Numbered from the stretch's first letter, positions 30,693 to 47,338 are shown. The stretch: 64,000 nt of DNA from Candidatus Multivoradales bacterium (GCA_965223855.1 CBDCXM010000008.1:1-64000), one strand, 5' to 3'. The notes: a model not told the origin generated them from the sequence alone. Numbers and translations: made by a program.

Positions 30693-32215
30693 GCGCTTTC
30701 CGCTCCTGGACCGTCGCGTCGTTCGTCGCCGCCACTGCGCTCGGTGGCGCGGCCGCAAAAGGGGCGGTTCCGGACGCGCCCGTCGGGGAATCACAGGCGC
30801 TCGGATCCCTCGAGATCCGAGACTTCGCCCTCGACAACGGCATGCGATTCCTCGTCGTGGAGCGCCCGTCGATGCCGACCGTCGAGGCCGGATGGGTCGT
30901 CGCCACAGGTTCCGCAGCCGAGGAAGAGGGTCGCACCGGAGTCGCACACCTGCTGGAGCACATGCTCTTCAAGGGCTCGGCCACCATCGGCTCCCGTGAC
31001 TGGCCACGGGAGAAAGATCTGCTCGAGCGGCTGCAGGCGATCGAATCGAGCCTCGCCCGCACCCGCTCGGAGCCGCAGAGCGCCGACGCGGAGCGGCTCG
31101 CCGCCGAGGTGCGATCGCTCGAGGCCGCGGCGGCCGATCTCGTCACCCTCGGCGCCTTCTCGCTCGAGTACTCCCGGGAAGGAGCGACCCGTCTCAACGC
31201 CAACACCAGCGCGGACAGCACCCTGTACTACGTCACTCTGCCGCGCGAGAAGGTCGAGCTCTGGTTCTGGCTCGAGTCAGATCGGCTGTCGTCACCGGTG
31301 TTCAGGGAGTTGCCGAAGGAGATCCGGGTCGTCGGCGAGGAGTATCGCAACCGCATCGAGGCCGATCCTGTCGGCGAGGCGGATCTGCGCGCCCGCGAAA
31401 GCTTCTGGTCGGCGCTCTTCGAGCCCGCCAGCCCCTACGGTCGATCGACGATGGGAGAACCCGGCGATGTCCGGCGAGCCACTAGGGGCCAACTGAGAGC
31501 CTTCTTCGACCGGTATTACCGGCCCGAGCAGCTCACCGCGGTCCTGGTCGGCGCCGTCGATGCCGTGGAAGTGGAACGGCTGGCTCGCCGCTACTTCGGC
31601 CGCCTCGGGAGCCGCGGGCCGGTGGCGTCGCGCAGCCCCGACGCGCGCCAGCGCGACGGCATCGACCGACTCGATCTCACCTGTGACTGCCCGGCGCAGG
31701 TGAGGGTCCGCTACCCCACCGTCCCGTTCGGTCACGACGACCAGTTCGCCCTTCAGGGACTCGCCGGCCTGCTCAACGGACGCGCCGGGCGTCTCTACCG
31801 CAGTCTCGTTCTCGACCAGGGGCTCGCGTTCGCCGCCTTCGCCCGGCAGCGCCCGCTCCGCCATGCGGGAGTCTTCGAAGTCACCCTCGAGGCCCGTGGC
31901 GATACCCCGCTTCAGGCTCTCGTCGACGCCTGGGACCGGGAGATCGGACGACTGCTGGACGAGCCGCCGGCAGCGCAGGAGTGGACGCGCACGCGGCGTC
32001 GGCTCGAGACCGAGCATCTCGACGCGCTGAAGGACCCCCACCTGCTGATGCGACGGCTTCTCCTGTACGCCGGCCTCGGCGACTGGCGGGTGCTCGGCGA
32101 CTGGCCCCGACGCCTCGGGTCGGTCACCCCCGAAGAGCTGTCCCAGGCGGCGCGCCGCCACCTGCGCCCGGATCGGCGCGCCATCGCCTTCTACCGGCCC
32201 GAGGCGAGTCCATGA
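30689..32215 (+). CDS. M16 (pitrilysin) zinc peptidase, active subunit
   Basis: 'GVAHLLEHMLFKG' (HxxEH), 'NANTSAD', signal peptide. Confidence 0.92.
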   Translation: MSAFRSWTVASFVAATALGGAAAKGAVPDAPVGESQALGSLEIRDFALDNGMRFLVVERPSMPTVEAGWVVATGSAAEEEGRTGVAHLLEHMLFKGSATIGSRDWPREKDLLERLQAIESSLARTRSEPQSADAERLAAEVRSLEAAAADLVTLGAFSLEYSREGATRLNANTSADSTLYYVTLPREKVELWFWLESDRLSSPVFRELPKEIRVVGEEYRNRIEADPVGEADLRARESFWSALFEPASPYGRSTMGEPGDVRRATRGQLRAFFDRYYRPEQLTAVLVGAVDAVEVERLARRYFGRLGSRGPVASRSPDARQRDGIDRLDLTCDCPAQVRVRYPTVPFGHDDQFALQGLAGLLNGRAGRLYRSLVLDQGLAFAAFARQRPLRHAGVFEVTLEARGDTPLQALVDAWDREIGRLLDEPPAAQEWTRTRRRLETEHLDALKDPHLLMRRLLLYAGLGDWRVLGDWPRRLGSVTPEELSQAARRHLRPDRRAIAFYRPEASP

Positions 32216-33756
32216 CGATTCGCACGGCGGTGCTCGCCCTGGCAACGCTGAGCGGCGTGGGCGCCCTGCCGGCACAGGAGGCTCCGCTTCCGGCGCACCC
32301 GCGTGATCTCGTCTTCCCCGAGGCAACGTGGCGTCCTCCCGATGCCTCAGCCCTTCGACACGAACTCCCGGGGGGAGCCACCGCCTATGTCCTGACCGAT
32401 CGCTCGCTGCCGCTGGTCGATCTGGTAGTGGTCGCCCGCAACGGCGGTCATCTCGACCCTCCCGGCCTTCGTGGCCTCGCCGAGATGACGACGACCCTGC
32501 TGCGCAGAGGCGGAGCGGGCGACCGCAGCTCCGAAGCGTTCGACCGTCGCGCCGACGAGCTCGGTGCGCGCCTCTTCTCGGTACCGACGATGCTCTACGG
32601 GGCCGCGGGCCTGAGATGCACCTCGGACGTGGTGCCCGAAGCGCTCGACCTGCTGCTCGACATGCTGGCCAGCCCCCGCTTCGAGGAGGCGCGGTGGCGC
32701 AACACCGTGGCCAACACTCGCGAAGCGTTGTCGCGTCGCAACCTCGACTCCCGACAGGTTCTCGAGCGGGAGTTCGACTGGCTGCTCTTCGGCGAGCGGC
32801 ACTTCTCCACCCGACCCATCCGCTCCTCGGACCTTCAGGCGATGACCCCCGCCGAGCTCGCAGCCTTTCACCGTCGTCACTGGGCGCCGTCGGGCTTCGT
32901 CCTGGCGGTCGCAGGGGACATCGACGCCGAGCAACTGCGCGGGCACCTGGCATCTCGCTTGAGAGACTGGCCGGGCGAACCCGACGGCTCGGCCGCGCCC
33001 CCATGGCCGCCACCCGGCCCGGACGAACCGGCTCGGGCAGGCCTGTTTCACATCGATGCCGACATTCCTCAGGCGAGGTTCCTCTTAGGCCATCGTGCTC
33101 CCGTCCTCCCGGCGACGGTCAAGGAACGGGTGGAACTCGAGGTAGTGGCGGAGATTCTCGGCGGTCGCGGCGCGATCTCCCGCCTCGGGGGCAGGCTTCG
33201 ATCTTCCGAAGGGCTGGTCTACTCGATCGCTGCCGACTTCGACCCCGGCGACCTGTGGCCCGGCTCGTATCGCATCCGCTTCGACACGAGGGCCGACCAG
33301 GCGGCTCGCGCCCTCCAGGCGACCCTCCAGGAGCTGCGTCGCATGATCGACACTGTGCCGAAGCCCGGAGAATTGGAGACCGTCAAGCTGGAGCTCAAGG
33401 CTCGTCGTCGGCAGGAGTTCGACACGGCCGAGGAGGCGGTCGGCCTGCTGGTGCAGGACGCTCTCGTCGGCAGACCGGCCGAGTACCGGTCCGACTACGA
33501 GCGGCTGCTGGACGCGGTGACACCCGAGGCGGTGGCCGCTGCTGCCGCCCGCCATCTGAATCCCGACGCGCTGACGATCGTCGTCGCGGGCCGATGGGAC
33601 GAACTGGCAGGAGCGGTCTACGCCGACGGTCGAACGGAGCTCGAAAGGATCGCGGGCTCTTCCGTCGAGCCTCTGCCGACTCGCGATCCACTGACCCTCG
33701 CTCAGCCCGCGGGGACGGCGCGCAAGGCCGGGCCGCACTCCGGGCCGGACAGCTAG
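32212..33756 (+). CDS. M16 peptidase partner subunit (no HxxEH)
   Basis: M16 fold ('DRSLPLV', 'LRSSEGLVYSI'), translationally coupled to the previous gene. Confidence 0.88.
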   Translation: MTIRTAVLALATLSGVGALPAQEAPLPAHPRDLVFPEATWRPPDASALRHELPGGATAYVLTDRSLPLVDLVVVARNGGHLDPPGLRGLAEMTTTLLRRGGAGDRSSEAFDRRADELGARLFSVPTMLYGAAGLRCTSDVVPEALDLLLDMLASPRFEEARWRNTVANTREALSRRNLDSRQVLEREFDWLLFGERHFSTRPIRSSDLQAMTPAELAAFHRRHWAPSGFVLAVAGDIDAEQLRGHLASRLRDWPGEPDGSAAPPWPPPGPDEPARAGLFHIDADIPQARFLLGHRAPVLPATVKERVELEVVAEILGGRGAISRLGGRLRSSEGLVYSIAADFDPGDLWPGSYRIRFDTRADQAARALQATLQELRRMIDTVPKPGELETVKLELKARRRQEFDTAEEAVGLLVQDALVGRPAEYRSDYERLLDAVTPEAVAAAAARHLNPDALTIVVAGRWDELAGAVYADGRTELERIAGSSVEPLPTRDPLTLAQPAGTARKAGPHSGPDS

Positions 33757-33763
33757 CCCGGCG

Positions 33764-36145
33764 CTACTCGGCGACGAGCTTCCGCGCGGCGGCGACCACG
33801 TCGTCCTCGCCCGGAAGGTAGTCGTGCTCGAGGGGGGGCGCGTAGGGAACCGGTGTGTCGGGCGCCGTGACTCTCCGGATCGGGGCGTCGAGGTCGTAGA
33901 AGAGGTCGTCGGCGATCCTCGCCGCCAGTTCTCCAGCGAAGCCTCCCCTGCGGGTGTCCTCATGAAGCACCAGCATCCTGCTGGTCTTGCGCACCGAGGC
34001 AAACAGAGCCTCTTCGTCCAGCGGCACGAGAGTGCGCAGGTCGAGCACCTCGGCCTCGATGCCCTCCTCCTGCAGCCTGCCGGCAGCCGCGAAAGCGGTC
34101 CAGACCATCGCTCCGTACGTGGCGATCGTCAGATCCTCGCCCGATCGACGCACGGCCGCCTTCCCGAGCGGTACCCGCACTGCGGAGCCGGTCGGTACCT
34201 CCTCGCGAAGATCGGTCCTGAAGAAGCCGTAAAGACCCTTCGCTTCGAGGAAGAGAACCGGCCCTTCGTCGTCGATCGCCGCCAACAGGAGGCCTTTCGC
34301 GTCTGCCGGCGTCGAGGGAGCGACGATCTTCCACCCCGGCGTGCGGACGAACCACATCTCGGGACACTGGCTGTGGAAAGGCCCCCCACCCAGGAGCGGC
34401 GTGTGCGTACCGGTCGCTCCGCCGTAGGGCAGCCGGACGACCATCGGCACCTCTCTCCCCCAGCGCCAGTAGACCTTCGCCGCGTTGTTGACGAGTGCAT
34501 TGAAGGCGGGCGCGAGGAAGTCGGCGAACTGCATCTCCACCACCGGTCGGAACCCCAGGAGCGCCGAGCCGACACCGCAACCGACGATCGCCGACTCCGC
34601 GAGCGGCGTATTGAGGCAACGCTCGGGGCCGAACTCCTTGGCCAGCCCGCGGGTCACACCGAACGCGCCGCCGTAGCGCCCACCGACGTCCTCTCCCAGC
34701 AGATAGACCCGCTCGTTCGCCCGCATCGCCTCTCGGAGCCCGTCCCGAACGGCTTCGTCGTAGGACATGCGCCTGGTCGCCGACCCGGCATCCGGCGCGC
34801 GCTCGGGAGGTGGCGGCGGGTAGACACGGGAACGATACTCGTCCGGATCGGGCCACGGTGCGGAAGCGGCAATCTCCGCAGCGGCCGCTACCTGAGCCTC
34901 ACACTCCTCGGCCATCCGGCGTTGGGCGTCGCGATCGAGCACGCCCGCCTCTGCGAGGCGATCGCCGAACAGGACCACCGGATCGACCGCCTCCCAGGCG
35001 GCAGCTTCCTCCGGGAACTCGTAGCCCGGGATCTTCGCCTCCGGGCTGCCGTGGAACCTGTCGTCGTCATGGTGAGCGTGTCCGGACCGACGGTAGCTGA
35101 CCAGCTCGATCAGAGTCGGTCCATGGCCGGATCTCGCTCTCTCCGCCGCCCAGGTGACGCCCGCGGCGATCTCCTCGGGGTCGTTGCCGAAGAGCGTCAC
35201 TCCGGGAATTCCGTAGCCGGCGGCGCGCAACGAGAAGCGGCGGGCCGCCGACTGCTCGCTGACGTGGGTCCCCAACGCCCACTGGTTGTTCTCGATGACG
35301 AACACCAGATTCAGCTTCTGCACCGCGGCGAAGTTGATCGCCTCGTGCCACTCCCCGAGGCTCGCGCCGCCCTCGCCGATGAAGGTCACTCCCACGCGGT
35401 CCTCGTCGGCAAGCCGGAAGCCGTAGGCGATGCCGAGCATCGTCTGAACCGCGACTGCCAGCGGCGCCGCAGGCGGAAGGACGCCATGATCGAAGTCGCC
35501 GGTATGAAGGTCCCGGCCGCCGACCGGCGTGCCGGTCTTCCCGTACTGCACGAGGATCGGATGCAGCGGATCCGGCAGGAACATGAGCAGCGCGCCCAGG
35601 TCGCGAATCAGCGGTGCAATGACGTCTCCCTGGTAGTCCGCACCCGGTGGATACGCCGGAGGGCGCCGGAGTCGCAGCGCTGCGCCGACGATCGCCTCCT
35701 GGCCGGTGGAACGGAACCCTTTCTGCGGTGACGGGTAGTCTCCCCACGCCACCTCCTTGCGGTCGAACGCCGTCTTGAGATGCCCGTCCACCGCTCGAGT
35801 GAGGAGCATGCCGCGCAGGAGCGCCTCGCGCTCCTCGGGCGCGAGGCTCCGCCGGATCCTCCGTCGCTCGAAGAAGCCACGGACTGCGACCTCGAGCGCA
35901 CCGCGCTCACCGGCAACCGCCTCGCCATGGGTGAGGCCGGGGTAGAGGGACACGTCCGAGTACCTCGGGCCCGTTCTGAAACGATGGTCGATGCGCTCGA
36001 CCAGCGCGGTCTCGAGCTCCTCTTCGCTCGCTGCACGCGGCAGATCGCGGATCAGAAAGGGGGCCTCGAGGCTCAGAAAGCCGTGGAGATCGCGCAACAG
36101 GGTCTCGGAGAGCATCGCTCCACCCGCTGGTGAGGGCTCGTTCAT
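33764..36145 (-). CDS. 2-oxoacid dehydrogenase E1, fused alpha/beta
   Basis: ThDP motif 'IGEGG...IENN', 'GEDVGG', 'NTPLAES', 'EMQFADF', 'FHSQ'. Confidence 0.92.
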   Translation of the reverse strand: MNEPSPAGGAMLSETLLRDLHGFLSLEAPFLIRDLPRAASEEELETALVERIDHRFRTGPRYSDVSLYPGLTHGEAVAGERGALEVAVRGFFERRRIRRSLAPEEREALLRGMLLTRAVDGHLKTAFDRKEVAWGDYPSPQKGFRSTGQEAIVGAALRLRRPPAYPPGADYQGDVIAPLIRDLGALLMFLPDPLHPILVQYGKTGTPVGGRDLHTGDFDHGVLPPAAPLAVAVQTMLGIAYGFRLADEDRVGVTFIGEGGASLGEWHEAINFAAVQKLNLVFVIENNQWALGTHVSEQSAARRFSLRAAGYGIPGVTLFGNDPEEIAAGVTWAAERARSGHGPTLIELVSYRRSGHAHHDDDRFHGSPEAKIPGYEFPEEAAAWEAVDPVVLFGDRLAEAGVLDRDAQRRMAEECEAQVAAAAEIAASAPWPDPDEYRSRVYPPPPPERAPDAGSATRRMSYDEAVRDGLREAMRANERVYLLGEDVGGRYGGAFGVTRGLAKEFGPERCLNTPLAESAIVGCGVGSALLGFRPVVEMQFADFLAPAFNALVNNAAKVYWRWGREVPMVVRLPYGGATGTHTPLLGGGPFHSQCPEMWFVRTPGWKIVAPSTPADAKGLLLAAIDDEGPVLFLEAKGLYGFFRTDLREEVPTGSAVRVPLGKAAVRRSGEDLTIATYGAMVWTAFAAAGRLQEEGIEAEVLDLRTLVPLDEEALFASVRKTSRMLVLHEDTRRGGFAGELAARIADDLFYDLDAPIRRVTAPDTPVPYAPPLEHDYLPGEDDVVAAARKLVAE

Positions 36146-36242
36146 CGGCGGGCTAGTATACGGACGGAGTCGGCGATGCCGCCGGGCCGGTCGCGACCCG
36201 GTGATAGCGTCCACGACTCGCCATCCTCCGCCGGTATCCTGC

Positions 36243-39089
36243 GTGAAGTCCTCGACTCAAATCCTGAGCTCGTTTCTGCGCGGCGTTCGTTTCCTCTTCG
36301 ACTCCGCTGCTGCGGCCGTCTTCGTGCCTCCTCCTTCCGACGGCAGCCTCGAGCCGATTCTGGTGCATGACGGCGATCGGGACGCCTTGCACGAGTTCCG
36401 GTCGGTCGAGGCCGCCCAGAGCACGGTGGAGCAGCTGATGGCCGGAGGGCGGGTCGCAGACAGGAGACCCGCGGGCGACTCCGGCGGCGTCTGGATCCTG
36501 CCGATGGTCTCCGCCCCTCCGAAGCCCGCGGATCCACCCACGACCTCTCGACGCGCGGCCGACAACGATCCCGCCAGAAGGCCTCGAGCCTACCTCGCCG
36601 TCCACATCGACTCCGGCTCCGGGCAGGTGGACGATGCCGGGACGTCCGACCCGCGATGGCAGTGGGTGCGGGAGTTCGGAGCCGATCTGGCCGAGCAGGC
36701 GATCAGGGTCCACAGCACCCTGCGCGACCCGGTAACCGGCCTGGCAGACCGCATCGGCTTCCAGGCACTGCTCTCGGACCAGGTGGAGAGGGCGACGCAG
36801 GCAGGCACCTGGCTCTCTCTGGTCCTCATCAACCCTCACAACTTCGGTCAGGTCAACGAGCGCTTCGGCAGGTTCTCGGGAGACAAGGTGCTGCGCGAGG
36901 TCGCAGAGCTGATCTGCGACACGCTGCGGGAATCGGATCCGGTGTCTCGCTACGGCGGTGCGATCTTCGGCGCGCTGCTCCCTGCCACCCCTCCCGAGGA
37001 CGCCACGACCGTGGCGCACAAGCTCGTCCATACCGTGCGCGACAGCACGTTCCTGGACGGTGATGTCCGTCTCGAGCTGTGCTGCGGCGTCGCGTCCCTC
37101 GACCCGGGCGACCAGCCCCTCGGAGACCCTCTCGACCTCCTCAGGAGGGCCGACCTCGCTCTCAACCGGGCGCGGCGCGAGGGGGAGGGTGCGGTGGACG
37201 TGTGGGGGAAGGCTGGAGGTGAGGCAGAGGAGGGTCGCGTCGAGTCGGGGAGGATCAGCGAGCTCTTCAGCGGTGATCTTGCTCGCGACTACCGGAACAT
37301 GGCGCTGCTGCGGGACGCGGTCGACCTCGTCGCCGACACCCACGACCTCGAGACCCTGGCCGGAGCCGTCGTCGAACGGCTCTACTCCGCCTGCAAGGCC
37401 GAGCGGGTCGGGCTGTTCCGTCGCGCCGACGGTCAGCCTCAGCTGGTGCGCGGAATCGCTCGCCCCTCGACTCCGGTCGGAGCGCGACGGGAGACGTTCG
37501 AGCTCGAGCCCGCACCCGCCGCTCTCCTCGCCTCCGCCATGGAGCAGGCTTCCGTCCAGAGCCGGCCCGTGGAGATCGGAGACGGGCGGACTCACCTCGC
37601 CTTCGCAGTGCCGATCGTGGCCGGCGGCGAGGCGATCGGCGGCTTTTACATCGACGGAGCCGTCGAGTCGATCGACGTCGATGCAACCGACCTGATCTTC
37701 TTCAAAGCACTCTCTTCCCAGCTCTCGATCGCCCTCGAGCGAGCGCAACTCGAATCGAGCCGCAGCTCGAGCAGACTCGAGGAGGAGCTCCTCGAGCTGC
37801 GCACCGCAGTTCAAGAGAGCCAGCTGGTCCACACGTCAGAGTCGATGGCCCAGCTCCTGGACGCGGTCGATCGGGTCGGGCCGACCGAAGCTACGATCCT
37901 CATCACCGGCGAGAGCGGCACGGGCAAGGAGATGATCGCTCGCCGGCTTCACGAGTCGAGCGCACGCCGTCGCCGCGGCCTGACGGTCGTCGATTGCGCC
38001 GCCATCGCGCCGACTCTGATCGACAGCGAGCTGTTCGGCCACGACCAGGGTGCCTACACGGGCGCCCAGAGGCGCCGTTCCGGCAGGCTCGCCGAGGCCG
38101 ACGGCGGGACCGTCCTGCTCGACGAGGTCGGCGAGCTTCCGGTCGAGGTCCAGAGCCGCCTGTTGCGGTTCGTGCAGGAGAAGCAGATCACCCTGGTCGG
38201 CGAATCCCGGCCGCGCAAGATCGACGTCAGAATCCTCGCTGCGACGAATCGCGATCTCGAAGAGGAAGCGCGCGCCGGTCGGTTCCGGGAGGATCTCTAC
38301 CACCGTCTGAACGTCGTGAGGCTGGACGTGCCGCCTCTGCGCGACCGCCCGGACGACGTCGTCTTCCTCGCCGAGCACTTTCTCTCCCAGTTCTGCGATC
38401 AATACGGCAAGGTGGGCGCCCACCTCACCGCGGACGCCAGGGAGGCTCTCGTGCGCTACGACTGGCCCGGCAACGTCCGGGAGCTGCAGAACCGGATGCT
38501 GCAGGCGGTGATCCTGCTCGAAGGTCGCGCGCTGGCGGCAGCCAGTCTCGGGCTTCCTTCGGAACCGGCGCCACGAGTCGTCCAACGTTCTCGACCGGAG
38601 AAGGCTCCGAGAGCCGGCGCGACCGTCGAAGAGGCGCTCGACGAGTTGAGGCTCATCCTGCGCGGTCAGATCGAGGCGATCGTCGATCGCAGCCGGGCGG
38701 TCCATCTCCCGCTCGGGAAGTGGCTGGCGGAGGACCTTCTCGCCGAGGCCGACCTGGCCGAGGGAGGCACCGCCAGAAGGGCCGCGCAGCGTATCGGGCT
38801 GGCTGAGACGACCTACCGGCGTCGCCTTGCCCAGGCACAGGCCCGCGAACGCGCCGGGCTCGCTCCGAGGCCCGACGGGTGGCTGGACGTTCGCGAGGCG
38901 TTGACCCGACTCCTGCACGCCTCCGATCGCGACGGAAAGCCGCTGCTGAAGCTGGCCGAGGCGGCACTGCTCGACGAGATCGTCTCGCAGCTCGAGGGGG
39001 ACGAGGTCACGGGAGCCGCGCTCCTGGGAGTCACTCTACCGACGTACCGACGGCGCATCGAGAGTTGGCTGGACAGCGCCGGCACCTGA
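36243..39089 (+). CDS. Sigma54-dependent enhancer-binding protein with degenerate GGDEF and GAF domains
   Basis: 'RDPVTGL...RESDPVSRYGGAIF', GAF-like region, 'GESGTGKE', 'GAYTGA', 'LLDEVGE', 'WPGNVREL', two HTH-like segments; start approximate. Confidence 0.9.
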   Translation: MKSSTQILSSFLRGVRFLFDSAAAAVFVPPPSDGSLEPILVHDGDRDALHEFRSVEAAQSTVEQLMAGGRVADRRPAGDSGGVWILPMVSAPPKPADPPTTSRRAADNDPARRPRAYLAVHIDSGSGQVDDAGTSDPRWQWVREFGADLAEQAIRVHSTLRDPVTGLADRIGFQALLSDQVERATQAGTWLSLVLINPHNFGQVNERFGRFSGDKVLREVAELICDTLRESDPVSRYGGAIFGALLPATPPEDATTVAHKLVHTVRDSTFLDGDVRLELCCGVASLDPGDQPLGDPLDLLRRADLALNRARREGEGAVDVWGKAGGEAEEGRVESGRISELFSGDLARDYRNMALLRDAVDLVADTHDLETLAGAVVERLYSACKAERVGLFRRADGQPQLVRGIARPSTPVGARRETFELEPAPAALLASAMEQASVQSRPVEIGDGRTHLAFAVPIVAGGEAIGGFYIDGAVESIDVDATDLIFFKALSSQLSIALERAQLESSRSSSRLEEELLELRTAVQESQLVHTSESMAQLLDAVDRVGPTEATILITGESGTGKEMIARRLHESSARRRRGLTVVDCAAIAPTLIDSELFGHDQGAYTGAQRRRSGRLAEADGGTVLLDEVGELPVEVQSRLLRFVQEKQITLVGESRPRKIDVRILAATNRDLEEEARAGRFREDLYHRLNVVRLDVPPLRDRPDDVVFLAEHFLSQFCDQYGKVGAHLTADAREALVRYDWPGNVRELQNRMLQAVILLEGRALAAASLGLPSEPAPRVVQRSRPEKAPRAGATVEEALDELRLILRGQIEAIVDRSRAVHLPLGKWLAEDLLAEADLAEGGTARRAAQRIGLAETTYRRRLAQAQARERAGLAPRPDGWLDVREALTRLLHASDRDGKPLLKLAEAALLDEIVSQLEGDEVTGAALLGVTLPTYRRRIESWLDSAGT

Positions 39090-39111
39090 CAGACCGGACC
39101 TGACAGACCGG
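39084..39111. repeat. Perfect 14-bp tandem duplication ACCTGACAGACCGG x2 across the activator stop codon
   Basis: Read directly from the sequence. Confidence 0.8.
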
Positions 39112-39205
39112 GCAGCGCAGAGCCCTCTCCCTCGAGGGGATACCGTCCCACCTCCACCCGCCGGCCACTCGGGTCCGAGGGCTCGGAGGGAGCGTGTTCC
39201 GACCC

Positions 39206-39225
39206 GCCTCGCCGCCCGGCGAGGC
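39206..39225. terminator. GC-rich hairpin between convergent transcripts
   Basis: GCCTCGCCG-CC-CGGCGAGGC inverted repeat; no clear U tract. Confidence 0.4.
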
Positions 39226-39286
39226 AGGGACTGAAGGGTGACTTCATCTCATCCGGCGCAGTCCTGTTGTCTCAGGGCCGGGACAG

Positions 39287-39457
39287 CTAGCCGCGGGAAG
39301 GGTCGACCAGAGGGGCCGGCGGCTCGTCGTCGCCGGTATCACCCTTCTCGTCGATGTAGTCCGAGGGACGGGCGAGGAATCCCTGATCGGCGCCCGTATC
39401 GGTCGCGGGGAGAACGGGGAGGACGGTCAGCATGAGGGCGAGAATCAGTCGAAGCAT
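39287..39457 (-). CDS. Small secreted peptide copy 3, 56 aa: MLRLILALMLTVLPVLPATDTGADQGFLARPSDYIDEKGDTGDDEPPAPLVDPSRG
   Basis: Translated by hand; AAGGA RBS upstream; paralog of the two neighbouring ORFs. Confidence 0.88.
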   Translation of the reverse strand: MLRLILALMLTVLPVLPATDTGADQGFLARPSDYIDEKGDTGDDEPPAPLVDPSRG

Positions 39458-39539
39458 GGGTAGGGTCCTTTTTCAGAGGTTGAGCGCCTCCGGCGTGGGA
39501 AGGAGGCTCGTTCCAGCGGTGTCCTGACGGGAAGCTGGG

Positions 39540-39710
39540 CTACCAGGAACGGTCGTCGCGCAGCGGCGCAGGCGGCTCGTCGTCGCCCGTGTCGCCCTTC
39601 TCGTCGATGTAGTCCGAAGGCCGGGCCAGGAAGCCCTGGTCGACATCGGTATCGGTCGCGGGGAGGACGGGGAGGATGGTCAGCATGAGGCCGAGAATCA
39701 GTCGAAGCAT
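39540..39710 (-). CDS. Small secreted peptide copy 2, 56 aa: MLRLILGLMLTILPVLPATDTDVDQGFLARPSDYIDEKGDTGDDEPPAPLRDDRSW
   Basis: Translated by hand; AAAGGA RBS; signal-peptide-like N-terminus. Confidence 0.88.
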   Translation of the reverse strand: MLRLILGLMLTILPVLPATDTDVDQGFLARPSDYIDEKGDTGDDEPPAPLRDDRSW

Positions 39711-39767
39711 GTGGATGTTCCTTTGTCGTGAGCAGGTTCGTTAGGGAAGGTCGCGATGCAGCTCTCG

Positions 39768-39941
39768 CTACCAGGACCGGTCGTCGCGCAGCGGCGCGGG
39801 CGGCTCGTCGTCGCCGGTATCACCCTTTTCGTCGATGTAGTCCGAAGGACGGGCGAGGAAGCCCTCGTCGGCTCCGTCGGTCGTCTGTGCCGGCAGCACC
39901 GGCAGCACGGTGAGAATCAATGCGATCATCCATCGGAACAT
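39768..39941 (-). CDS. Small secreted peptide copy 1, 57 aa: MFRWMIALILTVLPVLPAQTTDGADEGFLARPSDYIDEKGDTGDDEPPAPLRDDRSW
   Basis: Translated by hand; GAGGAG RBS; signal-peptide-like N-terminus. Confidence 0.88.
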   Translation of the reverse strand: MFRWMIALILTVLPVLPAQTTDGADEGFLARPSDYIDEKGDTGDDEPPAPLRDDRSW

Positions 39942-40292
39942 GGCGTTCTCCTCTTCTGGTCGTTCCGTTGCGTTGAAGTCGAAGCGACCTCATGATCGCT
40001 CCGACGGGTAGACACTTCTTGACACCCGGTCTTCGACGTTCGAGCGGCGTAGGGACCGCGCCGGGTCAACGATCGGCGGCCGAGACGGCGAAAAAACGGA
40101 GCAGCGGAAGCTCCGCAAGTGCGCATGCGGGGATGCGGGTCTTGCGACCCTCTCACTACAACCACCTGGTGTCCCTCAGCCATCGTTCGGTTTCGAGCCC
40201 CCCCGGGCCCGACGTATTATGTATCAGCTTTTAGCGCACACCCTCCGTCGCCGCAAGGGAGTCCGGCACAACGTCCGACTGGTGGAAGCCCG

Positions 40293-43200
40293 ATGGGTCT
40301 CGACCCTAGCCCGGGCCCCTGCTCCCTCGGGTCCCTTTGTGGGGTAAACTCCCGAGTCTTGAGAGGAAATCGGCTTTCGGCGCGACTCTCGGGGAGATGC
40401 GAGCCGAAGCGAAGACGGGGCATACGTCCTGCCCTTCGCGCCACGCTCGTCGCATCCTCGCTCCTGTGGCTGGTCTCGACGGCCTCCGGGGCGGCGCCTA
40501 CCTACCGATTCCACTACCCGCTCACCGGCGACTCCTCGGTCATCTACGACGTCTCGCACATCGTGCAGGACGGCCGCGGCTTCATCTGGCTCGGCTACGA
40601 GCGCAGCGTCGACCGGTACGACGGCTCCCGCGTCACGAGAGTCAAGTTGCCGGGGTCGGCGTCGCTCACAGAGATGACCACGTCCAACGACGGCCATCTG
40701 TGGCTGGCGACGCGTTCTGAAGGTCTGCTGGTCTGGGACGCGGCCACGGAGAGCTTTCTGCGCTGGACGCCCGACCCCGGTTCACCGGCCGTCCCTCTCG
40801 ATCTCGAAGCACTGACCGTCGGTCCGAGCGGGTTGCTGTGGGCGGCGACGAGTGACGGCAGAGTCGTCAGGATCGATCCCATCCGACGGCAGGCGACCGC
40901 AGTCGCGGCTCTGTCCGGCGGCGGCAACGTCTCGATTCGCAGCCTGGCCACCGGTCCCGGCGGCCAGGTCTGGATAGGGACGGGCAGCGGCGATCTCTAC
41001 CGGTTCGACCCTGCATCCAACGAGTCGACCCGACTCCGGGAGGCTGTCGGCGCTGCGCCGGTCTCGGCGCTGATCGCCGACGAGGAAGCGGTCTGGGCGG
41101 CGGGCGAGACGGGCCGGCTGATCCGCATCGATCCTCGCAACCTCGAGACGACGGCGATGGTCGTGGCTACCCGTGAGCGTGCCGAGCCACAGTCGATCCT
41201 CTCGCTGGCGCTCGACCCGCAGGGCAAACTCTGGGTCGGCACCGTCGATGGTCTGCGTCAGTTGTCGTCGGACGAACGGCGCCTCGAGACGGTACGAGCC
41301 GACCAGCGCGAGTTCAGCGAGCCCAACAGCAGCGCCGTGCGCGCGCTCTACCTCGATCGAGGCGAAGTGCTGTGGATCGCGAACGACGGCGGCATCGCCA
41401 CGGTCACGACCCGGGCCAGCGGCTTCACCCACTGGCGCATCGAAACGGGTGGGGCGACACACCCCGTCACCTCTCTCGCTGTCGAGGAGGACGGAACACT
41501 GTGGGCGGGCACCTACGACGGTGGGCTCTTCCGGAGATCTCCGTCGGGTGTGGTCGAGCAGATGGACCGCTCCCCCATCTCCGTCCGCGACGAGGGCGGA
41601 ACCGACCGTTGGCGCTCGAGCGCCAACGACTTGCACATCGCTCCTGACGGCACGTTGTGGATGGGGACGATGCGCAAGGGACTCGCCAGATGGGATCCGG
41701 CGGCGGGAGAGTTCGACTACCTCCCCTTCGACCCCCGCACCGAGGGTGCGCTCAACAACTCGACGGTGACCGTGCTGGCCGATCGCCGCGCCGGTGGACT
41801 GTGGGTGGGCACCTTCGCCGGAGGACTCAACCAGCTGGACACCGAAACCGGCAGATTTCGGGCCGAGAAGAGCGATCCCGACGACCCGACAACCCTGAGT
41901 CAGAACCAGATCAGAAGCCTGCTGGAGGATTCGGCAGGGCGTCTGTGGGTCGGCACGCGAGACCACGGGCTCAATCTCCGACGTCCCGGTGATCGAGGCT
42001 TCCTCCGCCTGAGGATGGACACCACCGACAGCCGGGCGCTCCAGGACGACACCGTCTTCGCTCTGACGGAAGATTCAGACGGGAGGATCTGGGTGGGTAC
42101 CTGGGGAGGGCTTCATCAGGCGCTCGTGACCGACAACGGCGTCGAGTTCCGGCACTACGGCCGCGAGGAAGGCCTCCAGGGCCGCAGGGTCTATTCGATC
42201 CTCGAAGACGCAGACGGCATGATCTGGCTCAGTACTTCGAGCGGTATCTCGAAGCTCAACCCGACGACCAACACGATCGTCAACCTGGGCCTCGATCACG
42301 GACTTCCGCCGACCGGATTCAACTTCAACGCCTATGCCCTGGGTCCGGACGGGACCCTGCACTACGGCAGCAGCTACGGTGTGACGTCGCTCGATCCGAA
42401 GCAGACTCTGGTCGAGGTCTACACGCCGGAGATCATCCTCACTGGAATCTCGAAGACCGGAGGGTCGACCACGGTAGAGACGGACTCGGTCACGCTCTCC
42501 TACAGCGAGGGGTTCGTGACGTTCGACTTCAGCCTCCTCGACTTCGGCGCACAGGACCGCAACCGCTACGAGCACAGGCTCGACGGGTTCGACGACGAAG
42601 GAAAGTGGGACGACACCGGCTCCCACCAGCGGGCGACCTACTCCCAGCTTCCTCCCGGCCGCTACACGTTCCGCGTCCGCGGAGCCAACAGCGAAGGGGT
42701 CTGGTCGGCGAACGAAGCGCGCGCCGAAGTTCACGTCCTGCCTCCGCCCTGGGCCACCTGGTGGGCCTACACCGCCTACATCGCGCTCGCCGTAGCGATG
42801 GTTCTCGCCTATGCCCGGATGCAGTCGCGCCGCCAGCAACGCGAGGCGACGTACCGCCGCCGGCTGGAGAGCGAAGTGCACCAGCGCACGCAGGAACTCG
42901 CCGAGCAGAACGAGAAGCTGCGCTACGCCAACGAGTTGCTCGAGGTGGCGAGCGTCACCGACTCACTCACAGGCGTACGGAACCGGCGCTTCCTGCTGAC
43001 GACGATCGATCAGGACATCGCTCTCGTCGATCGAGCCTTCGCCAAGGACGCCGTCGATCCCGAGAACTCCGCGTTCGTCTTCATCCTGTTCGATCTGGAC
43101 GGATTCAAGGAGATCAACGACGGCTATGGCCATTCGGCAGGCGACCTGGTCCTCTACCAGGTTCGGGATCTCCTCGCGCAGGCGTGCCGCACTTCCGACA

Positions 43201-43640
43201 CCCTGGTGCGATGGGGCGGGGACGAGTTCCTCATCGTGGCGAGAGAGGCGACGAGACGACACGTCGAGGCCCTCGCGGAGAGGATCCGTCAGAGCGTCTC
43301 CGGCCACGAGTTCGACGTCGGCGGCAGCACTCCCGTACGCCTCACCTGCTCCCTAGGCTTCGCCTGCTATCCGTTCGTCGCCGGAAACCCCAAGCTGTAC
43401 TCGTGGGAAGAGGTGATCGACATCGCCGACAGGGCTCTGTACGTGGCAAAGCGCCATGGACCGAACATGTGGGCTGGAATCTTCGGCACCGAGCGAACGG
43501 AAGAGACACCCTCGGAGGATCTCCTGACGCTGATCCTGGAGCGACCGGAGCTTCTCAACGACGAGGGGAGCATCCGGCTCGTCACCTCGAAGCCCACGCC
43601 ATACGCCATTCACCCCAGATCCAAGCCTAGCGGCAGGTAA
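40293..43640 (+). CDS. Membrane sensor diguanylate cyclase: periplasmic beta-propeller repeats + Y_Y_Y domain + TM + GGDEF
   Basis: Repeated 'D..G.LWVGT..GL' blades, 'YEHRLDGFD...ATYSQLPPGRYTFRVRGAN', TM helix, 'RTSDTLVRWGGDEF'; start uncertain (40293 to ~40400). Confidence 0.92.
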   Translation: MGLDPSPGPCSLGSLCGVNSRVLRGNRLSARLSGRCEPKRRRGIRPALRATLVASSLLWLVSTASGAAPTYRFHYPLTGDSSVIYDVSHIVQDGRGFIWLGYERSVDRYDGSRVTRVKLPGSASLTEMTTSNDGHLWLATRSEGLLVWDAATESFLRWTPDPGSPAVPLDLEALTVGPSGLLWAATSDGRVVRIDPIRRQATAVAALSGGGNVSIRSLATGPGGQVWIGTGSGDLYRFDPASNESTRLREAVGAAPVSALIADEEAVWAAGETGRLIRIDPRNLETTAMVVATRERAEPQSILSLALDPQGKLWVGTVDGLRQLSSDERRLETVRADQREFSEPNSSAVRALYLDRGEVLWIANDGGIATVTTRASGFTHWRIETGGATHPVTSLAVEEDGTLWAGTYDGGLFRRSPSGVVEQMDRSPISVRDEGGTDRWRSSANDLHIAPDGTLWMGTMRKGLARWDPAAGEFDYLPFDPRTEGALNNSTVTVLADRRAGGLWVGTFAGGLNQLDTETGRFRAEKSDPDDPTTLSQNQIRSLLEDSAGRLWVGTRDHGLNLRRPGDRGFLRLRMDTTDSRALQDDTVFALTEDSDGRIWVGTWGGLHQALVTDNGVEFRHYGREEGLQGRRVYSILEDADGMIWLSTSSGISKLNPTTNTIVNLGLDHGLPPTGFNFNAYALGPDGTLHYGSSYGVTSLDPKQTLVEVYTPEIILTGISKTGGSTTVETDSVTLSYSEGFVTFDFSLLDFGAQDRNRYEHRLDGFDDEGKWDDTGSHQRATYSQLPPGRYTFRVRGANSEGVWSANEARAEVHVLPPPWATWWAYTAYIALAVAMVLAYARMQSRRQQREATYRRRLESEVHQRTQELAEQNEKLRYANELLEVASVTDSLTGVRNRRFLLTTIDQDIALVDRAFAKDAVDPENSAFVFILFDLDGFKEINDGYGHSAGDLVLYQVRDLLAQACRTSDTLVRWGGDEFLIVAREATRRHVEALAERIRQSVSGHEFDVGGSTPVRLTCSLGFACYPFVAGNPKLYSWEEVIDIADRALYVAKRHGPNMWAGIFGTERTEETPSEDLLTLILERPELLNDEGSIRLVTSKPTPYAIHPRSKPSGR

Positions 43641-45391
43641 TGCGGCCCGCCCGCGGCGACGCCGCCAGGTCGGCCGCTTCCGCCACCCTTCGGGTCCTGC
43701 TCGTCTGCGCCGAGAGTCTCAAGAGCGAGGCGCTCAGACTGCTCGAGGAGGCCGGAGACCGCATACGCGTGGTGATCGCCTCCGAATCGGAGGCGGCGGA
43801 GGCGATGCTCGGTGCAGGGCGCTTCGACGCGGTACTGATCGAGTCGACGGCGGACGGCACCTCCGGCGAAGAGCTGTGCCGACGGTTCCGTGAGCGCTCG
43901 CGGTTCGACGATGTGCGTGTCGTAGTCGTCGTCGATGGCGGCAGGGAAGAGACCGACGAGGCCCTCGCCGCCGGCGCGACCGAGGCGGCACCGCGCCCCC
44001 TCGCTTTGCCGGCACTGCTGGGACACCTCGGTGGCACCCGTCTCCAGATCGAGCAGCCGGAGGTCGATGATGGGAAGCGCGACTCGAGGGTCGATCCACT
44101 GACCTCGCTGCCGGATCGCAACGCCTTTCGCCGACTGCTCGCGGAGCGTCTCGAAGCGAGGCAGGGAGACGGGCCCGTAGCGGCGATCCTCCTCGACATC
44201 GACCGCTTCAAGAAGATCAACGACAGTCTCGCCCACTCTTTCGGCGACCGGGTGCTCGTGGAGTTCGCGCGCCGCCTCAGCGTGGCACTCGGCGGGCCTG
44301 CCGAAGGGCGGGCCCTCGGTCGATACGGAGGAGACGAGTTCGCGGTGATGCTCGGCGACCTGGAGCGCGTAGGCGACGTCGCACAGGCGGCACGACACAT
44401 TCTCGCGACCCTGGCCCGCCCCCTTGCCGTGGAGGACCGCGAGATCTTCATCACGGCAAGCGTCGGGGCGGCCGTGGCACCGGCCGACGGCAAGACCGCG
44501 GAGCTGCTGCTGCGCAACGCCGAGACCGCGATGTACGCGGCCAAGAAGGCGGGGCGCGACACGTTCCGCTTCTATACCGACCCGATGAGCGCTTCGGTCG
44601 TGCGCAAGTTCGATCTCGAAAACAAGCTGAGGCGAGCGCTCGAGCGTGACGAATTCGAGCTCCTCTATCAGCCGATCATCAATGCAAGACGGCAGAGCCT
44701 GACCGGCGTCGAGGCGCTGTTGAGGTGGAACCGGGCGGGCGAGGAACCGAGTCAGCCGGAGGAGTTCATCGCCGTCGCCGAGGAGACCGGACTGGTGGTG
44801 GAGATCGGTGAATGGGTGCTCCGGAAGGCCTGCGCGCAGGCGCACGAGTGGAACCGCTCGTCCCCCTCCCCGGTTCGCGTGACCGTCAACGTCTCACATC
44901 GCCAACTGCGCAGCCGCGGCTTCGTCAGCTCGGTGGCGAGGATTCTCGGGGACACCGGGCTCGATGCCCGCCTCCTGGAACTCGAGATCACCGAAAGCAG
45001 CGTCGTCCGCAACGAGCGCGAGACGCTCACCGCACTCCACCAGCTCAAGGTCCAGGGGATCCGCCTCGCGGTCGACGACTTCGGGACCGGACACTCGGCC
45101 CTGAGCTATCTCAAGAAGTTCCCGCTCAACACCCTGAAGATCGATCAGTCCTTCACGCGCGGGATCACGACCGACGCCGACGATGCCGCCATCATCACCG
45201 CGACGATCAACATGGCCCACGGGTTGAACATGACAGTCGTCGCCGAAGGGGTGGAACTCGAAGAACAGCTCTACTTCCTGAGCCAGAACCAGTGCGACGA
45301 AGTCCAGGGGTTCCTCTTCGCCGCTCCCCTCGACGTCGAAGAGGTCGGTCGGCGGCTCCATGCCCAGAGCTGGGGCCCCGCCTCCGGCTGA
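43640..45391 (+). CDS. Receiver-like + GGDEF + EAL c-di-GMP enzyme
   Basis: 'RYGGDEF', 'LLYQP', 'EALLRW', 'DDFGTG', 'EGVE'; TAATG overlap with the DGC. Confidence 0.92.
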   Translation: MRPARGDAARSAASATLRVLLVCAESLKSEALRLLEEAGDRIRVVIASESEAAEAMLGAGRFDAVLIESTADGTSGEELCRRFRERSRFDDVRVVVVVDGGREETDEALAAGATEAAPRPLALPALLGHLGGTRLQIEQPEVDDGKRDSRVDPLTSLPDRNAFRRLLAERLEARQGDGPVAAILLDIDRFKKINDSLAHSFGDRVLVEFARRLSVALGGPAEGRALGRYGGDEFAVMLGDLERVGDVAQAARHILATLARPLAVEDREIFITASVGAAVAPADGKTAELLLRNAETAMYAAKKAGRDTFRFYTDPMSASVVRKFDLENKLRRALERDEFELLYQPIINARRQSLTGVEALLRWNRAGEEPSQPEEFIAVAEETGLVVEIGEWVLRKACAQAHEWNRSSPSPVRVTVNVSHRQLRSRGFVSSVARILGDTGLDARLLELEITESSVVRNERETLTALHQLKVQGIRLAVDDFGTGHSALSYLKKFPLNTLKIDQSFTRGITTDADDAAIITATINMAHGLNMTVVAEGVELEEQLYFLSQNQCDEVQGFLFAAPLDVEEVGRRLHAQSWGPASG

Positions 45392-45450: not shown

Positions 45451-45879
45451 GTGTCGATCCCGGCGGCCACCCTCGAACTGCTCCGCGACCTCGCCTGCCG
45501 CGAGCCGGTGTCGCTCATCATCTCGGGAGCCTGCATGGAGCCGGTCCTGCGCGACGGCGATCGGGTGACGGTCAGCCGACGGCGACGCTACGCTCCCGGC
45601 GACATCGTGGCGTTTCAGCGAGCCGGAGGGGAACTGGTGGCCCACAGGGTCCTCGGCTACTGTCCGACTCGCAGCGGCTGGAAGCTGATGGCGAGAGGAG
45701 ATCGCCTGTCGCGTGAGGACGAGCCGGTGACGCTCGATCGAGTGGTCGGCCAGGTCGTGGCGACCACCGCTGGAGCACTCGACAAGCCCGGCCCGCAACT
45801 GCGCTTGCTGTGCTCTTTCGAGCTGCTCCGACGACTCGCCCGGCGGGCCCTGTCATGCTTCTCGGCGAACGCTTCCTGA
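45451..45879 (+). CDS. S24/S26 peptidase-family protein
   Basis: 'ISGACMEPVLRDGD', 'PGDIVAF', 'VAHRV', 'RGD'. Confidence 0.8.
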   Translation: MSIPAATLELLRDLACREPVSLIISGACMEPVLRDGDRVTVSRRRRYAPGDIVAFQRAGGELVAHRVLGYCPTRSGWKLMARGDRLSREDEPVTLDRVVGQVVATTAGALDKPGPQLRLLCSFELLRRLARRALSCFSANAS

Positions 45880-46790
45880 CACAGCCCGATCTGTTCCCGG
45901 CACGCCTGGCCGGGACACCCGCCGGGAACGAGGCGGTCGAGCTCGAGTTGCCCGGCGGCCCCTACGATGTCGCGGGCCTCTCGAGCCGCCAACGAGACGC
46001 TCTCGAGGGCCGTTACGGCCCGCTGTGCAAGAGCTCCGGAGCGCGGAGCCTCGCGCAGGCGGTGCCCATTCGTGTCTTCATGGTGGACAGCGGAGAGTTC
46101 CTCGCCGGGGACACGGCCGGGAGGGTCAACGACTTCGACTTCGACTATCTGGAAGACCGCGTCCGGCTGGCAGGCCACCGGGTGATGGCGCAGCTGCGCC
46201 TCGCCCCCTCATCTACGCTGGCCCTGTGGACCAGCGTCACCGACGAGGGGCCCTTCCTCGAGCTGTTCGAGAACTGCTTCAGGGTCTGCGTCGCCTACAG
46301 GCTGCTGGAGAGTGGGGGCGCTCTCGTTCATAGCGCAGCGATCGCCGACAACGGCAAGGCGTGGCTCTTCTTCGGTCACTCGGGGGTCGGCAAGACGACT
46401 CTGGCGCGAAGCGCCCGCGAGCAGGGCTTCGAGCTGCTGAGTGACGACCTCAACGCGGTCGTCGCACGCGGGGACGGCCTGGCACTCGTGAGAATGCCGT
46501 TCTCGGGCGAGCTGCGCCACCCTCCCGCCCCCGCCACCGAAGTGCCCCTGACCGCCGCCGCGGCGCTGGTGCAGGCCGAGTCGGTCGACTGGAAGCCGCT
46601 GACCTCGGGCCGCGCGATGGCGGCCCTGGCGTCGAGCTGCCCGTTCCTCAATCGCGATCCGCATCGGCTCCCCAGCCTTCTCGATACCCTTCGGGCGATG
46701 GCGGACCGCGTACCGATCGGAGAACTGTCGATGACCCTGAACCCGAATCTGAGGCAGGTGTTGCCTCGTCCCGACGAGGTGACGGCTTGA
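45855..46790 (+). CDS. HPr-kinase-related P-loop protein
   Basis: 'LVHSAAI', 'GHSGVGKTT', 'LLSDD', 'PFSGE'. Confidence 0.8.
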   Translation: MLLGERFLTQPDLFPARLAGTPAGNEAVELELPGGPYDVAGLSSRQRDALEGRYGPLCKSSGARSLAQAVPIRVFMVDSGEFLAGDTAGRVNDFDFDYLEDRVRLAGHRVMAQLRLAPSSTLALWTSVTDEGPFLELFENCFRVCVAYRLLESGGALVHSAAIADNGKAWLFFGHSGVGKTTLARSAREQGFELLSDDLNAVVARGDGLALVRMPFSGELRHPPAPATEVPLTAAAALVQAESVDWKPLTSGRAMAALASSCPFLNRDPHRLPSLLDTLRAMADRVPIGELSMTLNPNLRQVLPRPDEVTA

Positions 46791-47065
46791 AGCCGGAGCT
46801 GTCTGCCGTCCTCGAGCGGGCAGACGACGTCCGCTACCGCTCGGTCGAGCGTGAGACCGTCGTCATCCGCCAGCAACAGGCCGAGGCACTCGTACTCAGC
46901 GAGGTGGCCGGGCGGATCCTCGACCTGCTCGACGGCACGCGAAGCCTCGAAGAGGTCGTCGCCCGCCTGCTCGACGAGTTCTCCGTCGATCGGGCGGTTC
47001 TGGAAGAGGACGTCAGGGCCTACGCCGGAGAACTTCTCGAGACCGGACTGGTGCTCGAAGCATAG
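46787..47065 (+). CDS. PqqD-family RiPP recognition element (RRE)
   Basis: 'LSEVAGRILDLLDGTRSLEEVVARLLDEFSV...DV..Y..EL...GLV' pattern. Confidence 0.9.
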   Translation: MKPELSAVLERADDVRYRSVERETVVIRQQQAEALVLSEVAGRILDLLDGTRSLEEVVARLLDEFSVDRAVLEEDVRAYAGELLETGLVLEA

Positions 47066-47173: not shown

Positions 47174-47338
47174 TCAGGACTGAATCGGGCCGACCGTACA
47201 GCTGAGGGGGTCGGTCTTGCCGGTGTCGCAGACGACCGCGAGAGCCTCGAGGCGCTCGCGCGAGAGCGTCCGCGGCTTGCGGTAGGGCCTCTTGCTCTCG
47301 TTCTCCCCGCCCCTGCCTACGCCATGACTCATCTTCAT
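47174..47338 (-). CDS. Putative RiPP precursor, 54 aa: MKMSHGVGRGGENESKRPYRKPRTLSRERLEALAVVCDTGKTDPLSCTVGPIQS
   Basis: Translated by hand; lies just downstream of the radical SAM gene; YxxP leader motif; two Cys in the C-terminal core; purine-rich RBS. Confidence 0.82.
   Translation of the reverse strand: MKMSHGVGRGGENESKRPYRKPRTLSRERLEALAVVCDTGKTDPLSCTVGPIQS

Follow-up and report, generated by a model that had tools for sequence, protein, structure and literature searches.

What is the function of three tandem genes that encode small peptides with one and the same acidic core, situated in a bacterial locus for signaling through cyclic dimeric guanosine monophosphate (c-di-GMP)? Annotation of metagenome-assembled genomes (MAGs) still overlooks families of small open reading frames (ORFs) that are clearly under purifying selection, or gives them no name, and one such case is found in a stretch of 64,000 nucleotides (nt) from Candidatus Multivoradales bacterium (GCA_965223855.1, CBDCXM010000008.1:1-64000), the whole of which is referred to here as the window. 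Three ORFs of 56–57 amino acids (aa) on its minus strand appear to be real, translated genes under strong purifying selection, and their products are a rare, lineage-restricted and undescribed small-protein family of uncultured Acidobacteria. Tentatively, we propose that the peptides are exported modulators of a periplasmic sensor, whose c-di-GMP is then read by a neighboring transcription activator, a proposal that we regard as somewhat more probably wrong than right. Here, we describe the genes, their relatives and their surroundings, and weigh this proposal together with its rivals.

Three tandem genes with one conserved core

The first gene of the array (39768-39941, minus strand, 57 aa) is preceded by GAGGAG at 39948-39953, 6 nt before the ATG, and matches the profile of the family at an E-value of 1e-32. 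The second (39540-39710, minus strand, 56 aa) has AAGGA at 39719-39723, and the third (39287-39457, minus strand, 56 aa), which has a distinct C-terminal tail (VDPSRG), has AAGGA at 39466-39470. The ORFs were thus found where a preliminary description of this DNA, made from the sequence alone, had placed them: all three start with ATG, and each has a Shine–Dalgarno sequence (GAGGAG or AAGGA) 6–8 nt upstream.

A core of 25 residues, GFLARPSDYIDEKGDTGDDEPPAPL, is identical in all three peptides. The same description had counted synonymous differences at 11 of the 25 core codons among the copies and no non-synonymous difference, and our codon comparison agrees: the core of copy 2 differs from those of copies 1 and 3 at 7 and 10 codons, respectively, always synonymously. 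Pairwise Nei-Gojobori estimates for the core gave synonymous rates (dS) of 0.43, 0.52, and 0.94 and a non-synonymous rate (dN) of 0, and when 11 single-base changes were placed at random in the core 200,000 times, they were never all synonymous. Among the copies in the window, amino-acid changes do occur in the N-termini and linkers and in the final six residues. The spacers between the genes, 57 and 82 nt long, had been called unrelated, and they indeed have little in common beyond the ribosome-binding site. Purifying selection on the peptide, claimed from these three copies, is seen again in the paralogue pairs of other genomes: within residues 20–50, the synonymous and non-synonymous differences number 14 and 3 in G001, 6 and 2 in G003, 3 and 0 in G002, and 18 and 9 in L036 (G and L are our own handles for genomes and loci), whereas the tails past residue 50 have changed mostly non-synonymously. 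Therefore, the constrained unit is the export signal plus about 25–30 residues of the mature part.

The stretch is also present in Logan contigs of four runs, which come from two samples of one study; none of the public holders listed is an RNA run. The best-matching public run may be the source of the window itself; one contig of 871 nt from the second sample covers all three genes without any difference, so that the triplet is no artefact of a single assembly. Two variants occur in the public contigs, both placed by reading the codons: position 39311, inside the core of gene 3, carries a synonymous change, and position 39294, in the unconstrained tail of the same gene, a non-synonymous one.

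Anatomy of the peptides and predicted export

Among 29 members of the family, 47–71 aa in size, the initial Met, Pro14 and one Asp (D33 in the numbering of the window) are invariant, and position 3 is Arg or Lys in all 29. The N-terminus includes an uncharged stretch of 13–22 residues. Residues 4–19 are hydrophobic, with a consensus of MFRLIAAIxMIxMPIISVSTG, the version in the window being MLRLILALMLTVLPVLPAT; the signal-like N-terminus noted earlier is present in each copy and ends in LPVLPA. Past the N-terminus, 6–10 variable residues are followed by the motif [FIL]-x-[ST]-[RH]-D-x-x-[DE], then usually by G-C-x(2-6)-C, a Pro-rich stretch ending in Phe or Leu and a variable tail. A rule-based scan, which involves no trained predictor, marks candidate cleavage sites with small residues at −3 and −1 at residues 17–24. 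The remainder after the first candidate site is 27–52 residues long and carries a net charge of −1 to −8 in all 29 members (−7 or −8 in the window). Exactly two Cys residues, a number that would suit a single disulfide formed outside the cytoplasm, are found in 25 of the 29 members; the other four, which are the three copies of the window and P0024, have none. An AlphaFold2 model based on 27 sequences has a helix at residues 2–15, a short helix at residues 34–38 and coil elsewhere, with a mean pLDDT of 64; the first helix is short for a membrane span.

With a basic n-region, an h-region, a Pro residue and small residues at −3 and −1, the peptides resemble precursors handled by the Sec pathway and signal peptidase I. 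The remainder should thus reach the periplasm, where it may be released by cleavage or stay anchored through the N-terminal helix. The earlier claim of export is upheld as far as features of the sequence go, namely one basic residue, an uncharged stretch with Pro, small residues at −3 and −1 and two Cys residues in 25 of the 29 members. Two other kinds of export signal were considered and rejected, a lipoprotein signal because no member has a Cys before the candidate cleavage site and a Tat signal because there is no twin Arg.

A rare family of uncultured Acidobacteria

How widely is such a peptide distributed? Curated libraries give no answer, as none of the three peptides matches any Pfam-A or NCBIfam family at E ≤ 10. 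Neither did single sequences reach far: a word-seeded homologue search returned the window's own three proteins only, the ESM Atlas gave no usable match to the peptides, and a search of 61 genomes found two tandem small ORFs in G002, a genome of the same genus, at an E-value of about 4e-4. A profile built from five sequences then detected copies in all five genomes of the genus (three, two, two, two, and one), all ten having a Shine–Dalgarno site. In the other 295 genomes of the order this profile found nothing convincing; the next best match (E 4.5e-4) was partial and lay within a frame of 233 aa. A profile of ten sequences gave 21 matches at E ≤ 1e-3 among 1.84 billion representative proteins. 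Eighteen of them, including the window's own, are proteins of 56–69 aa aligned from residue 1, and the other three, long repetitive proteins, were taken as spurious. In a scan of metagenomes, 4 of 54 pattern matches were confirmed, which are relatives on four metagenome contigs; a narrower alignment against species-representative genomes gave 43 pattern matches, none of which was confirmed.

Divergent single copies were recognized in G016 (47 aa) and G012 (51 aa), each in the gap beside the gene of the activator described below and each with a Shine–Dalgarno site and a C-x6-C pair. With a profile of 24 sequences that includes these two, the family is found in 7 of the 45 genomes of the taxonomic family, namely all five of the genus (g1) and G016 and G012, which represent two further genera; the other 38 contain no member at E ≤ 0.05. 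One of these 38 is an unpublished genome, G005, which is also counted in the 61-genome search, in the search with the five-sequence profile and in the activator tally. The homologues in other genera are about 20–35% identical at the protein level and occupy the same position in the locus, and the number of copies per genome varies from one to three, in tandem.

Two of the relatives belong to MAGs of Thermoanaerobaculia and Acidobacteria, by which the genus of the window is placed in Thermoanaerobaculia (Acidobacteriota), and the members that have a name at all are called “hypothetical protein.” None of the papers found on Y_Y_Y diguanylate cyclases, on HprK/PqqD/radical-SAM cassettes, on small proteins of Thermoanaerobaculia and on MgrB describes the family, which has no name to search by. 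The preliminary description had not recognized any family, and this still holds for the curated libraries, but the peptides are no orphans, since relatives exist elsewhere. The profile search of genomes and metagenomes that it had recommended yielded the homologues given above, and their neighborhoods were compared as described in the next section. Unnamed small exported proteins are common, so the finding is more ordinary than had been implied.

The peptide genes lie between c-di-GMP genes

The array is flanked by two large genes on the plus strand. The convergent one (35991-39089, with its true start probably near 36231) encodes a sigma-54 activator of the AAA+ type with Pfam matches to GGDEF, GAF, Sigma54_activat and the AAA lid. 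Its GGDEF domain is degenerate (RESD-x5-GGAIF) with an intact RxxD at the canonical distance; we take it to be catalytically dead with the inhibitory-site pocket for c-di-GMP kept, as general knowledge of GGDEF domains would have it. The protein is a candidate c-di-GMP-responsive sigma-54 activator. The loop that contacts sigma-54 has GAYTGA instead of GAFTGA, and the order of N-terminal region, GGDEF, GAF and AAA+ is an unusual architecture. The divergent gene (40119-43640, with a likely start at 40293 or 40359) encodes a membrane diguanylate cyclase sensor with Pfam matches to Reg_prop, Y_Y_Y and GGDEF, in which RTSD-x5-GGDEF is intact and two hydrophobic segments, residues 108–126 and 879–897, bracket the Reg_prop/Y_Y_Y propeller region. 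Directly downstream follows the gene for a GGDEF-EAL protein (43640-45391, plus strand; Pfam GGDEF and EAL) with both motifs present.

The order of activator, peptide gene or genes on the opposite strand and sensor is found in the window, G002, G004, G012, G016, L035, and L038, and the GGDEF-EAL gene accompanies the peptides in all of these except L035. Elsewhere only one side can be seen, that of the activator in G001, G003, and L036 and that of the sensor in L037; a contig end cuts off the other side in G001, L036, and L037. Wherever the activator side can be seen, the activator adjoins the peptides. G003 is an exception to the arrangement as a whole: the sensor operon is on contig C54 together with a radical-SAM cassette that is treated below, and the peptides and the activator are on C286. 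In this genome (C286, 1914-2536; L013), the break is just upstream of the region of the peptide promoter, where tRNA-Thr, hydrolase, FG-GAP, and subtilase genes are found instead.

The activator is far more widespread than the peptides. A search with its N-terminal half finds full-length relatives, 34–47% identical, across most genera of the taxonomic family, where they usually lie beside a propeller/Y_Y_Y diguanylate cyclase; 44 of the 45 genomes show some match at E ≤ 1e-10. In 9 of 13 activator loci from other genera, the sensor is also present within the stretch retrieved, seven of the nine having no peptide gene. In these seven peptide-less genomes, activator and sensor are adjacent in four and have a GGDEF-EAL gene between them in three. 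Since such genomes keep the activator–sensor pair, the peptides were inserted into an older pair. An unrooted tree of 18 activator sequences (MAFFT and FastTree, SH-like supports) unites the lineages that have the peptides in one clade with a support of 1.0.

A possible modulator of the periplasmic sensor

A periplasmic site of action is suggested by the signal-like N-terminus, the strict count of two Cys residues in most members and the acidic, unstructured remainder. An outline of the proposed process is as follows: initially, the Sec-type N-terminus would direct the export of an acidic, Pro-rich and largely unstructured peptide of 27–52 residues to the periplasm. There the peptide would bind and modulate the propeller/Y_Y_Y domain of the adjacent cyclase, and the c-di-GMP made by the cyclase would be read by the sigma-54 activator via its degenerate GGDEF domain with the intact RxxD. 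The three copies with one identical core may serve dosage.

Because the sensor cyclase is the only protein of the locus with a large periplasmic domain, it was chosen as the partner for a complex prediction, in which the mature peptide (residues 19–56; alignment of 10 rows) was combined with residues 125–876 of the sensor (alignment of 72 rows). The median ipSAE was 0.33 (0.56, 0.02, and 0.33 in the three runs), the best of three controls being 0.02; contacts agreed between runs to at least 48%, and the pLDDT of the partner was at least 33. In the calibration, 58 of 80 solved complexes and 2 of 110 mismatched pairs came up to the mark, and at a score of 0.60 or below only 7 of the 80 solved complexes and both of the mismatches passed, counts that hold only roughly here because alignments of our own were used. 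The prediction lends weak support to binding of the sensor. A signaling peptide had been among the roles suggested at the outset; the constant c-di-GMP context fits it, and the median of 0.33 adds a little in its favor.

Several points weigh against a modulator of the sensor. By the tool's own account, a pass in the range obtained is wrong in more cases than not unless the guess had been a likely one from the start, and one of the three runs gave 0.02. The split in G003 indicates that adjacency to the sensor is not obligatory for the peptides, and the genomes that keep sensor and activator without a peptide indicate that the sensor does not need one. Since all lineages with the peptides fall into one clade, the constancy of the context carries the weight of roughly one evolutionary event, a single gain kept since. 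The copies in the window lack the Cys pair seen in most members, so that if a disulfide loop has a role, it is not a general one. Nothing supports a link back from the activator to the peptides, as no sigma-54 promoter was found near the array: rpoN is present in the genome, no GG-N10-GC site upstream of any copy is conserved between genomes, and a scan of the window gave 13 sigma-54 matches against 12.9 expected, none of them within 30946-45213. A diffusible pheromone is made less likely because a peptide of about 4 kDa would probably not leave a diderm's periplasm. Finally, our case that the peptides are expressed, exported and cleaved is built on sequence.

A more specific version of the proposal holds that the peptides are cognate, species-specific ligands of the propeller/Y_Y_Y domain, so that a self-made peptide would act through the diguanylate cyclase and c-di-GMP on the sigma-54 activator. 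We consider such a relay unlikely. If it were true, it would couple c-di-GMP to a periplasmic signal, either autocrine or of the state of the envelope, perhaps coordinated with the product of the adjacent radical-SAM cassette, a peptide synthesized ribosomally and modified post-translationally (RiPP). To our knowledge, it would also provide the first peptide ligand assigned to the Reg_prop/Y_Y_Y domain, a very common sensor domain. Ligand-binding sensor domains of this kind head thousands of bacterial signaling proteins, and relatives of the present sensor alone amount to 4,100 proteins at E ≤ 1e-30 among 8,000 candidates. The known ligands are mainly those of polysaccharide sensors of Bacteroidota. 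With a genetically encoded peptide partner beside it, one such sensor would become open to testing, in a phylum where tractable signaling systems are few.

A radical-SAM cassette downstream

Beyond the GGDEF-EAL gene lies a cassette that comprises genes for an S26-like peptidase (~45478-45879, plus strand), an HprK-like protein (45810-46790, plus strand), a PqqD-like protein (46787-47065, plus strand) and, on the minus strand, a radical S-adenosylmethionine (SAM)/SPASM enzyme (47397 to ~48500) with a 54-aa precursor ORF next to it (47174-47338, minus strand). The precursor is conserved in 7 of the 45 genomes of the taxonomic family and has a leader motif, LSRERLEALAV, that is invariant across genera, a core with two Cys residues 9–10 residues apart and a C-terminal Ser. 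The cassette is apparently of an uncharacterized RiPP type. The NCBIfam matches of its enzymes, which include ScmC, ScmE and HprK-related families, are all far below the curated cut-offs. In the S26-like (or S24-like) peptidase, we presume that GACMEP aligns to the motif around the Ser nucleophile of signal peptidases; by reading of the sequence it is without an N-terminal membrane segment, and it may act on leaders in the cytoplasm, with Cys as the nucleophile. It was also considered as a dedicated signal peptidase for the tandem peptides and rejected, since it has no evident N-terminal membrane segment and travels with the RiPP cassette.

Alternative explanations

Are the peptides a product of the locus rather than an input to it? 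They may be a secreted or periplasmic effector, for example a cation-binding or matrix acidic peptide, whose expression is set by c-di-GMP and whose copies increase the yield. The high acidity and Pro content of the remainder and the one to three tandem copies per genome fit such an output, as does the fact that the tightest linkage is to the activator, which stands beside the peptides in G003, where the sensor does not; the array also has a conserved promoter-like element of its own and a long leader. However, upstream of the array there is neither a sigma-54 promoter nor a recognizable site for the activator, so that no promoter links the two, the activator gene is convergent rather than divergent, and among the scanned neighbors, where alone exporters were looked for, no outer-membrane route for a Sec-exported peptide is evident. 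We judge an exported output to be improbable, though a serious contender; if the peptides were only that, they would be a modest new small-protein family. A Sec-dependent antimicrobial or toxic peptide of the bacteriocin kind is a very improbable explanation: small tandem genes, variation between species and a conserved export signal recall it, but the peptide beyond the signal carries a strong negative charge, the scanned neighbors include no recognizable immunity or exporter gene, and the copies within a genome are identical instead of diversified. That there are no genes here, only chance ORFs or a non-coding repeat, might be suspected from the shortness of the ORFs and from a genomic G+C content of 68% (68.2% in the window), at which spurious ORFs abound, but the all-synonymous pattern of substitution, the conserved ribosome-binding sites and the distant homologues in the same position in other genera leave this explanation with a negligible probability.

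The proximity of the cassette raises another possibility, already named in the preliminary description, that the tandem peptides are RiPP precursors, namely substrates of its radical-SAM/SPASM, PqqD, HprK-like, and S26-like proteins (45.4–48.5 kb) with the N-terminus as leader. The cassette is 5.4–8 kb away, beyond the sensor and GGDEF-EAL genes, which are co-directional with its first genes. The peptides and the cassette precursor each occur in 7 of the 45 genomes with an overlap of six, the HprK-like gene of G002 being at a contig end, and most members of the family have two Cys residues near acidic residues. Yet this co-occurrence is again that of one clade and amounts to roughly one event, and G009 has the cassette precursor and no peptide that we could find, in a genome only 62% complete. 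The cassette has its own 54-aa precursor, and LSRERLEALAV, the two-Cys core and the C-terminal Ser of this precursor are absent from the tandem peptides. The three copies of the window and P0024 have no Cys at all, although other radical-SAM chemistries are possible, and linkage to the maturase is not obligate, as G003 carries the cassette on C54 and the peptides on C286. Substrates recognized through PqqD-type elements, moreover, do not usually have a hydrophobic, signal-like leader. The RiPP reading is therefore disfavored, and we hold it to be quite unlikely.

Resemblance to known systems

The precursors of Phr and competence peptide pheromones combine a conserved export signal with a species-variable mature part and are encoded beside the presumed receptor, as are the peptides described here. 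These systems belong to monoderm bacteria and act through RNPP receptors or two-component kinases; in contrast, the present host is a diderm acidobacterium, and no genes for RNPP receptors or such kinases were recognized among the scanned neighbors. RiPP precursors that are matured by radical-SAM/SPASM and PqqD proteins, including the one at 47174-47338, are likewise small and sometimes multi-copy, with a conserved N-terminus, a variable C-terminus and, in the peptides, a Cys pair in most members; unlike them, the peptides have a hydrophobic signal-like N-terminus and are separated from the maturase by two signaling genes.

A modulator of the sensor would find its nearest functional parallel in two other systems, to neither of which the peptides are related in sequence. 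In the YfiBNR system of Pseudomonas, YfiR is a Sec-exported periplasmic repressor that is encoded beside YfiN and is made redox-sensitive by Cys cross-links (PMC3375315). There, too, a periplasmic partner binds the periplasmic domain of an adjacent membrane diguanylate cyclase and thereby sets the output of c-di-GMP, but YfiR is a folded protein (homology model of residues 68–190) with four Cys residues and works together with the outer-membrane protein YfiB (PMC3375315). The peptides, by contrast, are of about 40 residues, mostly predicted as coil, and no YfiB-like gene was seen among the scanned neighbors. MgrB of enterobacteria is a membrane protein of 47 aa that inhibits the sensor kinase PhoQ; two periplasmic Cys residues are essential in it, and few other residues of the periplasmic part are (PMC8404706). 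The likeness would lie in the very small size, a hydrophobic helix at the N-terminus and a short part in the periplasm that, in most members of the family as in MgrB, has two Cys residues; MgrB acts on a far larger membrane sensor (PMC8404706). The proposed target here is a diguanylate cyclase with a propeller/Y_Y_Y region rather than a histidine kinase, and the peptides differ further in an N-terminus that looks cleavable (13–22 uncharged residues and P14), in the copies of the window without Cys and in their tandem genes.

Expression signals around the array

A promoter-like element, TTGCGG-N17-TAAAAG (40228-40256, minus strand), faces the peptide genes and is followed by a G-run at 40198-40204; its function as a promoter is presumed. 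The corresponding block, CCTTGC-N17/18-TAnAA followed by GGGGGG, lies about 250–320 nt upstream of the first peptide gene and is kept in six distinct upstream regions (the window, G002, G003, G004, L035/L037, and L038), block and G-run being the only parts of the leaders that align. A sigma-70 consensus scan called no site at the block, the promoter reading having been made by eye, and G016 and G012 share a different pair, TAGACA-N17-TACCAT. A search of Rfam over 38900-40700 at E ≤ 10 gave two chance-level eukaryotic matches and no riboswitch, and a tRNA scan of the window found none. Inside the leader of about 280 nt, a terminator-like hairpin with a T-run (40090-40116, minus strand; shuffled sequences would yield 0.7 sites where one was found) may act in attenuation or belong to a separate short RNA; the T-run occurs in the window only. 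Between the array and the convergent activator gene lies a GC-rich inverted repeat with a stem of 8 bp (39206-39225, assigned to neither strand), which is without a T-run and may serve as a terminator.

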